This document shows positions 40,419 to 43,955 of a DNA stretch of 64,000 bases, piece after piece. The first letter of the stretch is position 1; each line of letters begins with the position of its first letter. A program made the translations under genes and the position numbers. The notes below the pieces were generated by a model. The model saw only the letters and a program-made list of their open reading frames with translations. It ran no database searches and was not told the origin of the DNA. The stretch is taken from assembly GCA_949878575.1 (NCBI GenBank), contig CATLAX010000001.1, forward strand, positions 202,752 through 266,751. Reading direction: 5' to 3'. The stretch comes from an uncultured Alphaproteobacteria bacterium. Lineage in GTDB: Bacteria > Pseudomonadota > Alphaproteobacteria > Rs-D84.

Positions 40419-40775
40419 ATGTTGAAACATTTGTCTACAGAAGAAAGACGCACGCTGGCGAATCGCAGTGCGCTGAAAAGAAAGAATCCCGGTAAAATCC
40501 GTTTGTCGGTTTTCCGTTCCGGTCGTCATATTGAAATACAGGCTATTGATGATGTAAAGGGTCACACTGTTTGCGCCGCGTCGTCAAAAGAAAAAGATTT
40601 CAAAGGCCAGGGTTGGAATATTGCTGGTGCGGAGTTGGTCGGCAAGACCTTCGCAGAACGCGCGGTAAAGGCGAAAATCGCCGACAACTGCTATTTTGAT
40701 CGCGGCGGTTATCGCTATCATGGTCGCGTCAAGGCACTGTGCGAGGCTATTCGCGCCGGTGGCGTCAGAATCTAA
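40419..40775 (+). CDS. rplR: 50S ribosomal protein L18
   Basis: [18 protein letters not shown]...[23 protein letters not shown]. Confidence 0.95.
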
Positions 40776-40799
40776 TTGGAATATACGGAGTACATAAAA

Positions 40800-41354
40800 A
40801 TGGCACGTTTTGATGATAAAAAATTGCAGACGGATAATCTGGTAGACAAGCTGGTTTCCATTAATCGCGTCTCTAAAACAGTTAAGGGCGGCCGCAACAT
40901 GTCTTTCTCGGCATTGGTTGTGGTTGGCGACAAGGCAGGCCGCGTAGGCTTTGGCAAGGGCAAGGCACTGGAAGTACAGTCCGCCGTTCAAAAAGCGACC
41001 AAGGCCGCAAAGGCAAAAATGATTCGCGTTCCGTTGAAAGAAGGACGCACGCTGCATCATGATGTTGATGCAAAATACGGCGCCAGCAAACTGGTTGTGC
41101 GCAGTGCGGTTCCCGGTACCGGAATTATCGCCGGTGGTGCGTTGCGTGCGGTGTTTGAATGCCTGGGCGTTCAGGACGTTGTTGTAAAATCACAGGGTTC
41201 CAACAACCCCAACAATATGATTCGTGCGGCGTTTCTGGCGTTTGCGAAGATGAATTCTCCGAAGACTGTTGCGGCGCGCCGCGGCAAGTCTGTTGCGGAA
41301 ATCATCGCGGGTCGTGACGGCAAAAAACTGGAAGATGCGGCGGAAGAAAAATAA
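40800..41354 (+). CDS. rpsE: 30S ribosomal protein S5
   Basis: [27 protein letters not shown]...[13 protein letters not shown]. Confidence 0.96.
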
Positions 41355-41377
41355 CGCTAAGAAAGGTAAATGTAGTT

Positions 41378-41560
41378 ATGTCAAGAGTGTGGCTTAGGCA
41401 AGTTAAAAACAGTATGTCCTGTTCTGTAGAAGAACGCAGGGCTTTGTTAAAACTGGGCTTGGGCCATATCGGCATGACCAACGAAATTGACGACAATACA
41501 ACGGCGACACGTATGGCGCTTGCTAAAGTGCGTTTTGCTGTTAAAAAACGTTGTCGCTAA
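41378..41560 (+). CDS. diverged second copy of 50S ribosomal protein L30 (paralog or decaying duplicate)
   Basis: MSRVWLRQVKNSMSCSVEERRALLKLGLGHIGMTNEIDDNTTATRMALAKVRFAV aligns colinearly with the canonical copy downstream (QVK...R...LGLG.IG.T.E..D....R...AKV...V). The conserved DTPxxRGM reads DNTTATRMA here. Confidence 0.55.
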   Translation: MSRVWLRQVKNSMSCSVEERRALLKLGLGHIGMTNEIDDNTTATRMALAKVRFAVKKRCR

Positions 41561-41606
41561 GGATACTAAACGCTGTTGCGTTATTTAAAAAACGGAGAAT
41601 ACTGTT

Positions 41607-41786
41607 ATGTCTAAAATAATTGTAAAGCAAGTCAAAAGCTTAATCGGCCGTCCGGAATCGCAGCGCAAGGTTGTTGCGGCACTGGGGCTGGGGCGTATCG
41701 GCAAGACCAAAGAGCTGAGCGATACACCGGCTGTTCGCGGCATGATTGCCAAGGTTTCACATCTGGTTGAGATTGTGGAAAAATAA
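41607..41786 (+). CDS. rpmD: 50S ribosomal protein L30 (canonical copy; 59 aa, absent from the supplied ORF track)
   Basis: The ATG at 41607 follows GGAG. MSKIIVKQVKSLIGRPESQRKVVAALGLGRIGKTKELSDTPAVRGMIAKVSHLVEIVEK. TAA at 41784-41786. Confidence 0.92.
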   Translation: MSKIIVKQVKSLIGRPESQRKVVAALGLGRIGKTKELSDTPAVRGMIAKVSHLVEIVEK

Positions 41787-41867
41787 ATATTATAAACCGA
41801 GTGGCGCGGGACTTGCCGTGCTGCGAAAAAAGACTATATAATGGTCGTAGGACAAAAGGAAAATATT

Positions 41868-42326
41868 ATGAAATTAAATGCATTGATGGATAATTTCGGT
41901 GCGCGCGCCGACGTAAAGCGTGTTGGGCGCGGTATCGGCAGTGGTATGGGTAAAACATCCGGCCGTGGTAACAAGGGTCAGAAATCCCGCAGCGGTTCGC
42001 GCAAGCAGGCGACGTTCCAGGGTGGACAGATGCCGATTTTGCGTCGTTTCCCGAAATTCGGGTTTAACAATCCGTTTGCAAAGGAATATGTTACTATCAA
42101 TTTGGGCGATATTGAAAAATTTATCGCGTCCGGTAAGATTGATGCAAAGTCACCGATTACGATTGATTCTTTGATGACCGCGAAAATCATCAACCGCAGA
42201 ATGTCCGGGCTGAAGGTTCTGGCCAAGGGCGAAATCAAGTCCAAGGTTGAAATTGTTGCGGCAAAATGGTCCAAGGCGGCCGAAGAGGCGATTGTAAAGG
42301 CCGGCGGTTCTATTAAGGCGAAATAA
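41868..42326 (+). CDS. rplO: 50S ribosomal protein L15
   Basis: MKLNALMDNFGARADVKRVGRGIGSGMGKTSGRGNKGQKSRSG. Confidence 0.96.
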   Translation: MKLNALMDNFGARADVKRVGRGIGSGMGKTSGRGNKGQKSRSGSRKQATFQGGQMPILRRFPKFGFNNPFAKEYVTINLGDIEKFIASGKIDAKSPITIDSLMTAKIINRRMSGLKVLAKGEIKSKVEIVAAKWSKAAEEAIVKAGGSIKAK

Positions 42327-42328
42327 TA

Positions 42329-42631
42329 ATGAACGGCACCATAACACCGTCACAGTATCTTAAAGCGGCAAGGCAGGATTTTAAAAACCTGCCTGCCGAT
42401 GCTTGTGATGAACTGCTTGATATGATGGATTCAAACAGCGGGTGGCATGAGTTGTTTATTCCCGACTATATACCCCAAAAATATCATGCGCGCATGCAGA
42501 AAACATGGACGCTTATGGTGTTTCTTATTCTGACAAGAAACGCCACGCGCAAGTATTCACTGGTACGGCGTCATAACATGTTGAAAAACGCCCTGATATT
42601 TCGGGACGCATTAGCAACAGCGGAGAGATAG
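42329..42631 (+). CDS. orphan 100-aa ORF embedded between rplO and secY
   Basis: The ATG is 2 nt after the rplO stop and the stop is 4 nt before the secY ATG. One hydrophobic segment (TWTLMVFLILT). No recognisable motif. Confidence 0.5.
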   Translation: MNGTITPSQYLKAARQDFKNLPADACDELLDMMDSNSGWHELFIPDYIPQKYHARMQKTWTLMVFLILTRNATRKYSLVRRHNMLKNALIFRDALATAER

Positions 42632-42635
42632 GCAG

Positions 42636-43955
42636 ATGAAGTTTATAAAAAACTTGTTTGGTAATTTGACAGACCTGCAAAAACGCATACTGTTTACTTT
42701 GGGTGCGTTGGTTGTATACCGTGTTGGGTCGTTTATTCCGTTGCCTGGGGTTAACGCATCGGCGGTTCTGCATCTGTTTACCGGCGAAGGCAGCGGGATG
42801 ATGGGCATGTTTGACATGTTTTCCGGCGGGTCTTTGTCCCGTATGTCGGTGCTGGCATTGAACATATTCCCGTATATTTCCGCATCCATTGTTATCCAGC
42901 TGTTGACCGCGACCAGCAAGTCTTTGTCTGAGCTGCGCAAGGAAGGCGAATCGGGCCGCATCAAAATCAATCAGTATACGCGTTATCTGGCGGTGTTCCT
43001 GGCGGTGGTTCAGGGATGGGCCGTTGTTTGCGGTTTGGAATCCATGGCGCCGGTAAACGGTGTCGCGGCGGTTGTGAATCCCGGATTTGCGTTTGAATTG
43101 TCGGCAATTATAGCTTTGGTTGGCGGTACGGTGTTTGTAATGTGGCTGGCGGAACAGATTACTGCGCGCGGCATAGGGCAGGGTGCGTCGCTGTTGATTT
43201 TTGCAGGTATTATTGCAGAGGTTCCGGGTGGAATCGCAAAGATATTTTCTTTGGGATCCGTCGGCCAGATGTCGCCTGCGATGATTGCTCTGGTTGTCGG
43301 CTTTGTTGTCGGAATTATCGCGCTGATTGCGTTCTTTGAACAGGCGCAGCGTCGTATTCAGATTTTATATCCGCGCCAGGTTATGTCAAACGGCATCGTT
43401 AATACAAACGCGTCATATTTGCCGATAAAGGTAAACATGTCGGGTGTTATGGGACCCGTATTCGCCGCCAGTATTATGATGTTGCCGGCATTTGTTCAGC
43501 GCTTTGTTCAAAGTGAAAACCTGGTTGTTCAGAATATCATGGCTTTCTTTACGTACGGCGCGTGGTCTTATATCATCATGTATACGATACTGATTGCGTT
43601 CTTTGCGTATTTTCAGACGGCGGTTATATTTAACTCTGAGGAAACAAGCAACAATTTGAAAAATGCGGGTGGCTATATCCCCGGCGTGCGTCCCGGCGAA
43701 CAGACTGTCCATTATCTGGATTCTGTTGTGTCGCGTACGACCGCAATAGGTGTTATGTACCTGATTGTTGTCTGTGTCGTGCCGATTATTTTGAACACGC
43801 ATCTGGGAATGCCGTTGGCGATAGGCGGCACCAGTGTTCTGATTGTGGCGGGCGTTGTTCTGGATACTATGACCCAGGTTCAGTCGTATCTGGTTGCAAA
43901 GCAGTATGGCGGCGTTATTAAAAAGGCGCAAAAGAAGGGACGTTTCCGCGGTTGA
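42636..43955 (+). CDS. secY: preprotein translocase subunit SecY
   Basis: LQKRILFTLGALVVYRVGSFIPLPGV...ALNIFPYISASIVIQLL. Ten-TM pattern, 439 aa. Confidence 0.97.
   Translation: MKFIKNLFGNLTDLQKRILFTLGALVVYRVGSFIPLPGVNASAVLHLFTGEGSGMMGMFDMFSGGSLSRMSVLALNIFPYISASIVIQLLTATSKSLSELRKEGESGRIKINQYTRYLAVFLAVVQGWAVVCGLESMAPVNGVAAVVNPGFAFELSAIIALVGGTVFVMWLAEQITARGIGQGASLLIFAGIIAEVPGGIAKIFSLGSVGQMSPAMIALVVGFVVGIIALIAFFEQAQRRIQILYPRQVMSNGIVNTNASYLPIKVNMSGVMGPVFAASIMMLPAFVQRFVQSENLVVQNIMAFFTYGAWSYIIMYTILIAFFAYFQTAVIFNSEETSNNLKNAGGYIPGVRPGEQTVHYLDSVVSRTTAIGVMYLIVVCVVPIILNTHLGMPLAIGGTSVLIVAGVVLDTMTQVQSYLVAKQYGGVIKKAQKKGRFRG

Follow-up and report, generated by a model that had tools for sequence, protein, structure and literature searches.

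A diverged uL30 paralog in tandem with canonical rpmD in the spc operon of an uncultured alphaproteobacterium: a possible re-specialised RNA-binding protein

Why would a bacterium with a strongly reduced genome carry two genes of the ribosomal protein uL30 (L30) family side by side in its spc operon, one of them strongly diverged? This question is raised by a stretch of 64,000 nucleotides (GCA_949878575.1, contig CATLAX010000001.1, positions 202,752 to 266,751 of the forward strand), which we refer to in full as the window. The spc operon of the window runs in the order rplF, rplR, rpsE, two short open reading frames (ORFs), rplO, and secY. A preliminary description had claimed that both short ORFs are L30-like, and we found both of them intact, on the forward strand, and where it had placed them. 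We call the upstream ORF L30a and the downstream ORF L30b. The features of the locus, in window coordinates, are as follows.

40776..41354, forward strand: rpsE (S5); the likely start is ATG 40800, and TTG 40776 is the first in-frame start.
41355..41377, forward strand: rpsE-L30a spacer of 23 nt, orthologous by alignment to the short rpsE-rpmD spacer of genome G076 of the same genus.
41378..41560, forward strand: L30a, diverged uL30 paralog of 60 amino acids with a pI of 10.9, carrying Cys15, His30, Cys59, and the basic tail KKRCR.
41561..41606, forward strand: L30a-L30b spacer of 46 nt with an rpsE-tail relic, a hairpin, and the canonical Shine-Dalgarno (SD) sequence ACGGAG; duplication junction.
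41607..41786, forward strand: L30b, canonical rpmD (uL30) of 59 amino acids, matching the Pfam and TIGR01308 models.
41868..42326, forward strand: rplO (L15); there is another, upstream ATG at 41841.

The neighboring S5 protein is 92 to 97% identical to S5 of the same genus, with a dN/dS of 0.02 to 0.03. No convincing promoter was found between the rpsE, L30a, and L30b genes in the locus that we examined. Further downstream, the space from rplO to secY is taken up by a forward-strand ORF of 100 amino acids (42329-42631) that has no match in Pfam. G076 has a version with 63% identity, gaps of ∼300 nt occupy this place in genomes G047 and G021, and in genomes G012, G013, G048, and G161 rplO and secY lie just ∼60 nt apart. 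With this ORF, the operon contains two lineage-specific inserts.

Are both ORFs members of the uL30 family? L30b is the textbook L30 that it had been taken for, with scores of 74.5 bits against PF00327 and 89.4 bits against TIGR01308. L30a aligns with L30b colinearly, as had been described, at an identity slightly higher than the one-third claimed (BLASTP, 22 of 56 residues, or 39%; one 1-residue gap; E value of 1e-11), a similarity far above what chance would give. The other reported changes were borne out as well. In the alignment, IGRP is replaced by MSCS and DTPAVRGM by DNTTATRM, cysteines appear at positions 15 and 59, and EIVEK at the C terminus gives way to KKRCR. The frame is intact from ATG 41378, the first start in frame, and the ribosome-binding site that had been judged plausible is present, though weakened. 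Canonical L30 proteins of the order share eight invariant positions, and only three of these (Q8, G27, and R44/45) are retained in L30a. The hallmark positions G14-R15, G45-M46, and H52-L53 are replaced, so that relative to canonical uL30 (PF00327, TIGR01308) L30a is without the IGR and RGM motifs and H52-L53. What it retains, without any added domain, is the LGLG-x-IG loop together with Q8, K10, R45, and K50-V51. Its two cysteines lie 44 residues apart and are accompanied by one invariant His (His30), with no CxxC pattern; L30b has no cysteine. With a basic tail in place of an acidic one, proteins of the L30a family (see below) carry a net charge of +7.6 to +10.7 versus +6.6 for the canonical protein.

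When the two copies were scored against L30 models, L30a fell below the cutoff of Pfam PF00327 (14.7 bits versus 23) and below the curated cutoff of TIGR01308 (12.7 bits versus 44.65). The Pfam L30 model matches at just two places in the whole 945-kb assembly, and these are L30a and L30b. When profiles were compared, the L30a family aligned with the canonical L30 proteins of its order over 54 columns (hhalign, 98.1%, E value of 9.4e-14). AlphaFold models of L30a reached a pLDDT of 87.7 when canonical rows were included in the alignment and of 87.1 when it consisted of the nine L30a-type rows alone, and the predicted structure has the beta-alpha-beta-alpha-beta fold of uL30. The top Foldseek matches of these models in the PDB were all bacterial uL30 proteins (TM score of 0.85 to 0.92, root mean square deviation of 1.0 to 1.4 Å). 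Judged by profile comparison and structure prediction, L30a is a real homologue of uL30 in the uL30 fold.

How did the second copy arise? It had been proposed that the gene was duplicated in tandem and that one copy diverged strongly, and direct evidence for this duplication is preserved in the spacer 5′ of L30b. This 46-nt spacer aligns with the last codons of rpsE, the TAA stop, the hairpin, and the ACGGAG of G047 and G021, and it still contains a relic of the rpsE 3′ tail (GGATACTAA versus GAAGATAAATAA). A small hairpin (AACGC-TGTT-GCGTT), which also appears in the RNA folds, lies after the relic and before the SD sequence. Because the spacer aligns with the tail of rpsE, its stop, and the spacer that follows, we read it as the junction of a tandem duplication in situ. 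As reconstructed from the alignment, the duplicated unit of ∼230 bp begins ∼10 nt short of the rpsE end and continues through the spacer to the stop of rpmD. All 19 genomes of the same genus that we viewed in detail have rpsE, 20 to 40 nt, a single rpmD, and then rplO.

In a maximum likelihood tree, the L30a family is monophyletic (support of 100/100) on a very long stem, and it attaches among the L30 proteins of the genus itself and not with the outgroups from other families, which have long branches. On a short branch, L30b clusters with its orthologues from G047 and G076 (95/90). The L30a family attaches beside L30 of genomes G048 and G242, a placement that, with 59 columns, is untrustworthy in detail. 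L30a may derive from rpmD of this genome itself or from an rpmD of the G048/G242 type. The canonical L30 proteins of G048 (L023:1474-1650) and G242 (L048:1486-1662) have IGCPE, not IGRPE, and thus a cysteine at the position equivalent to Cys15.

How widespread is L30a? Among 257 species representatives of the genus, L30a is present in one and absent from the 256 others; the best score of any other genome of the genus against L30a was 40 bits, compared with 140.6 bits for L30a, and the match was a canonical L30. The preliminary description had named absence of the diverged copy from all close relatives as a ground for refutation. The gene is indeed absent from these 256 species representatives, yet at least six further lineages, all uncatalogued, have conserved it. 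Failure against L30 profiles, which had been given the same weight, applies to L30a of the window, whereas four other proteins of the family pass the Pfam cutoff. We do not take either result as a refutation. A sample of 61 genomes of the order contained no other genome with a second L30 match, and neither L30a subfamily was found in GTDB representative contigs or JGI metagenomes with patterns drawn from both subfamilies. Three genomes of the same genus (G062, G065, and G074) have two canonical L30 matches each, on different contigs, and these metagenome-assembled genomes (MAGs) have a contamination of 2 to 5%. The double L30 in these genomes is probably strain redundancy and not a true second copy.

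The window sequence is carried by rat-gut metagenomes from about ten studies. No RNA data set was listed among the carriers, and the two runs labeled RNA-Seq are probably DNA. One rat-gut run, X17, contains three related strains or species over 40800-42330. The first is near-identical to the window (depth of about 5), and the second is ∼86% identical and has L30a (depth of 61). The third, also ∼86% identical, is without L30a (depth of 26 to 31): position 41364 is joined directly to 41603, so that rpsE is followed by a single rpmD.

Is L30a maintained by selection? Database searches identified eight further intact L30a-type proteins in public assemblies, which are 55 to 97% identical and fall into two subfamilies. 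Subfamily 1 (P0007, P0002, P0008, P0003, and P0004) is 78 to 97% identical to L30a of the window, and subfamily 2 (P0005, P0009, and P0010) is 55 to 58% identical to it. P0003, P0004, P0005, and P0009 score above the Pfam cutoff (25.6 to 35.1 bits), and P0002 scores below it (14.2 bits). The window protein and P0002, both with a one-residue insertion, are the most diverged members. This insertion of one codon, in frame, is the sole length difference in the family. Twenty positions are invariant in all nine proteins, including Cys15, His30, and Cys59, and the basic tail is also kept. Several of the invariant residues (Cys15, Ser16, His30, Asn40, Ala54, Lys57, and Cys59) are foreign to canonical L30, and the replacements at the hallmark positions are invariant, or nearly so, within the family. 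P0010 corresponds to NCBI MCM1294688.1, which is labeled "uL30 family ribosomal protein [Muribaculaceae bacterium]" and is called from an internal Met (49 amino acids). It lies on a 308-kb contig of a Muribaculaceae-labeled MAG, probably a mis-binned or mislabeled alphaproteobacterial contig. A further match, P0006 (E value of 2e-4), is a 306-amino-acid repeat lipoprotein that we judged to be a chance match and left out of the family.

A DNA-level comparison was provided by X17, in which a 3.6-kb contig, ∼86% identical to the window, carries rpsE-L30a-L30b. Its L30a gene differs from that of the window by 19 substitutions, and its translation is exactly P0002. For this one pair of DNA sequences, the Nei-Gojobori method gave 9.5 synonymous changes on 40.2 sites and 9.5 nonsynonymous changes on 139.8 sites, corresponding to a dN/dS of 0.25 that departs from neutrality (binomial P of 0.004 to 0.014). 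Canonical rpmD of this genome compared with relatives has a dN/dS of 0.07 to 0.13, and the L30a value is 2 to 3.5 times higher. These comparisons of coding sequence indicate that L30a is under constraint, looser than that on structural rpmD. The same comparisons, together with its short branch, indicate no relaxation of L30b, which is 74 to 92% identical to the single L30 of genomes of the same genus. Taken together, we consider it very probable that L30a is a functional gene.

Constraint at the protein level was accompanied by unusual features of the mRNA. The SD sequence of L30a is weakened (AAAGGT ∼10 nt upstream, versus ACGGAG 5′ of L30b). The mRNA segment 41355-41610 has a minimum free energy of −75.8 kcal/mol, with a z score of −3.33 and none of 200 shuffles as stable, and in the predicted fold the AUG of L30a is paired in the stem of a hairpin of ∼100 nt. 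The segments with rpmD, from this genome and from G047, are about as stable as shuffled sequence (z scores of −0.76 and −0.97). In the single X17 variant, 14 substitutions fall at paired positions of the hairpin; 7 of the pairs are kept by wobble and 7 are broken, and no compensatory change was seen in this variant. A search of 40700-42700 against Rfam gave no credible match. The dS of L30a between the window and X17 is 0.28. Around it, the X17 contig departs from the window at ∼15 to 17% of the positions in rpsE and at 16% of those in rplO, a divergence that comparisons of similar distance place at a dS of ∼0.6 to 1.2, which is an estimate because most rpsE differences were not itemized. The low dS of L30a may reflect either interspecies recombination through the conserved flanks or constrained synonymous sites. 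That the L30a mRNA folds far better than its shuffles, with the AUG buried, is in favor of the latter.

What could L30a be doing? We propose, tentatively, that it is a re-specialised, ribosome-linked RNA-binding paralog with a changed target, similar in kind to Rlp7 of yeast; taken as a whole, we rate this statement somewhat short of an even chance. After the duplication in the spc operon, one rpmD copy changed rapidly, losing most of the hallmark uL30 positions. It fixed new residues (Cys15, His30, Met33, Phe53, the basic C-terminal tail, and Cys59) and has since evolved under purifying selection; the predicted uL30 fold, the small size, and the strongly basic charge were retained. According to our proposal, the product would be a small RNA-binding protein with a re-specialised binding surface, cotranscribed with the spc operon. 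It would have a site or step of action different from the usual uL30 position in the mature 50S subunit. The target could be a pre-rRNA, an assembly intermediate, or an mRNA. L30b would go on serving as the structural uL30. We infer that L30a is translated, that it binds RNA, and that its target has changed. The coordinated loss of the hallmarks, followed by new conservation, is better explained by a changed target than by an L30a that still serves at the original site. The weakened SD sequence and the sequestered start suggest a lower output than that of a structural ribosomal protein, and translation of L30a may be substoichiometric or coupled. Several observations stand against this proposal: L30a keeps LGLG-x-IG, Q8, K10, R45, and K50-V51 and so could still dock at the uL30 site; the 23S rRNA, which L30a and L30b would both face, shows no new element that could mark an alternative site; the dN/dS comes from one pair with 19 substitutions; and 256 sister species do without the gene.

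Two more specific roles were considered and set aside. Binding of L30a to a lineage-specific rRNA expansion is unsupported, since the 23S rRNA gene has 2,750 nt in this genome (G000) and the same length in G076 and G104, which are without L30a. Compensation for a loss of bL25, the 5S-region ribosomal protein that we surveyed, was rejected because G000 has bL25, as do four relatives. Elsewhere in the genus, G266 has a 23S rRNA gene of 3,013 nt (G266:C1:86016-89028), compared with the 2,750 nt of G000, G076, and G104. This difference suggests an insertion of ∼260 nt, possibly an intervening sequence.

Could L30a instead be an alternative uL30 that occupies the normal site in some ribosomes or under some conditions, for example, in response to metal or redox state through Cys15, His30, and Cys59, giving rise to heterogeneous ribosomes? 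We consider this less probable than a changed target, but a strong rival to it. Such a role would be in keeping with the predicted fold, the size, and the operon slot, all of which L30a shares with uL30, with a positive charge that is even higher, and with LGLG-x-IG, Q8, R45, and K50-V51, which are common to all canonical L30 proteins. There is also precedent, in that alternative paralogs of bacterial ribosomal proteins are well documented (PMC3353972, PMC5912738, PMC13374519) and the uL30 paralogs Rpl7a and Rpl7b of yeast alter translation (PMC9399092). It is harder to explain, however, why most of the canonical invariant positions were replaced when the rRNA target would have stayed unchanged. 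Unlike the Zur-controlled ribosomal proteins, L30a and L30b share an operon and give no hint of being regulated separately; the Cys and His residues of L30a do not form the CxxC pattern of a zinc ribbon; and a weak SD sequence with a buried start speaks against stoichiometric output. In a more far-reaching version, L30a would be a metal- or redox-responsive alternative uL30 in which the metal or disulfide state of Cys15, His30, and Cys59 decides whether L30a or L30b enters the 50S subunit, and which has spread by recombination in the spc operon. We regard this version as improbable. If true, it would be the first case of a core ribosomal protein family outside the zinc-ribbon families with a Cys-bearing, switchable paralog.

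The remaining alternatives deny the peptide a role of importance. L30a might be a nonfunctional or nearly neutral leftover of the duplication whose frame has stayed open by chance. Its absence from the 256 other representatives of the genus and from the L30a-free relative that co-occurs in X17, its scores below the curated L30 cutoffs, and its elevated dN/dS relative to rpmD would all be expected of such a leftover. However, nine versions are intact, the most distant at 55% identity, and have 20 invariant positions in common, of which several are new acquisitions; the lone indel is in frame, the dN/dS is significantly below 1 (in one pair), and the gene has been retained in a reduced genome of 0.95 Mb. 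A decaying duplicate, which had been listed among the options, is therefore disfavored, and we consider a leftover of any kind to be scarcely probable. Alternatively, the segment might act mainly as RNA, with the hairpin and the translated ORF tuning translation of rpmD, rplO, and secY and the peptide itself of little matter. The stability of the L30a segment with its sequestered start, next to rpmD segments that fold like shuffles, points in this direction, as does a dS lower than the flanks predict. A role mainly as RNA is difficult to reconcile with the selection against amino acid changes relative to synonymous ones, with the hairpin of the X17 variant, in which half of the substitutions within stems disrupt a pair and no compensatory change occurs, or with the lack of an Rfam match. 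We think it very improbable.

How does L30a compare with known systems? It shares with canonical uL30 its homology, predicted fold, length, and rpsE-rplO slot, but it coexists with an intact canonical copy. The human protein RPL7L1 is a ribosome biogenesis factor derived from uL30/L7. Yeast has Rlp7, also a biogenesis factor derived from uL30/L7 (PMC3814368, PMC3884665, PMC5425277); this homologue of uL30/L7 binds ITS2, and its site differs from that of L7 (PMC3814368, PMC3884665). Like L30a beside L30b, Rlp7 is a diverged duplicate of the uL30 family that coexists with the structural ribosomal protein. Unlike L30a, it is eukaryotic, much larger, and nucleolar, and the relation between the two is by analogy only. 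The yeast pair Rpl7a and Rpl7b (PMC9399092) likewise represents duplicated uL30 genes with differential function, but these two are nearly identical, whereas L30a and L30b share 39%. Among bacteria, alternative ribosomal proteins include zinc-dependent and zinc-independent pairs of L31, L33, L36, S14, and S18 and the bS21 paralogs of Francisella (PMC3353972, PMC5912738, PMC7363858, PMC13374519). The resemblance lies in a diverged second copy that is kept by selection in some lineages and in a Cys content that differs between the copies. In contrast to the zinc-switch pairs, uL30 is not a zinc-ribbon protein, it is the derived copy that gained Cys, without CxxC, and L30a follows rpsE after 23 nt, as a tandem copy within the spc operon, rather than residing at a separately regulated locus.

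Diverged duplicates of ribosomal protein genes hardly ever persist in bacteria, zinc-ribbon families excepted. According to Yutin et al. (2012), paralogy of ribosomal proteins is rare in bacteria, zinc-motif families account for all of the highly diverged paralogs, and L30 is among the proteins that are often lost (PMC3353972). In the literature available to us, we found uL30 paralogs in eukaryotes only and no description of a bacterial one. The uL30 homology as such is known already, through the name that the NCBI pipeline gave to P0010; of the remodeled, conserved family and of the duplication scar, we found no description. In Escherichia coli, uL30 is dispensable, as rpmD deletions show. 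Here, the gene of a core ribosomal protein outside the zinc families was doubled within the operon that is most conserved, in a genome that is strongly reduced, and the copy has been remodeled and held by selection. The scar is still legible, and with so small a family the path of change should be reconstructable. L30a would represent a clean natural example of neofunctionalization of a bacterial ribosomal protein, parallel to Rlp7 in eukaryotes, if its role has changed as we propose.
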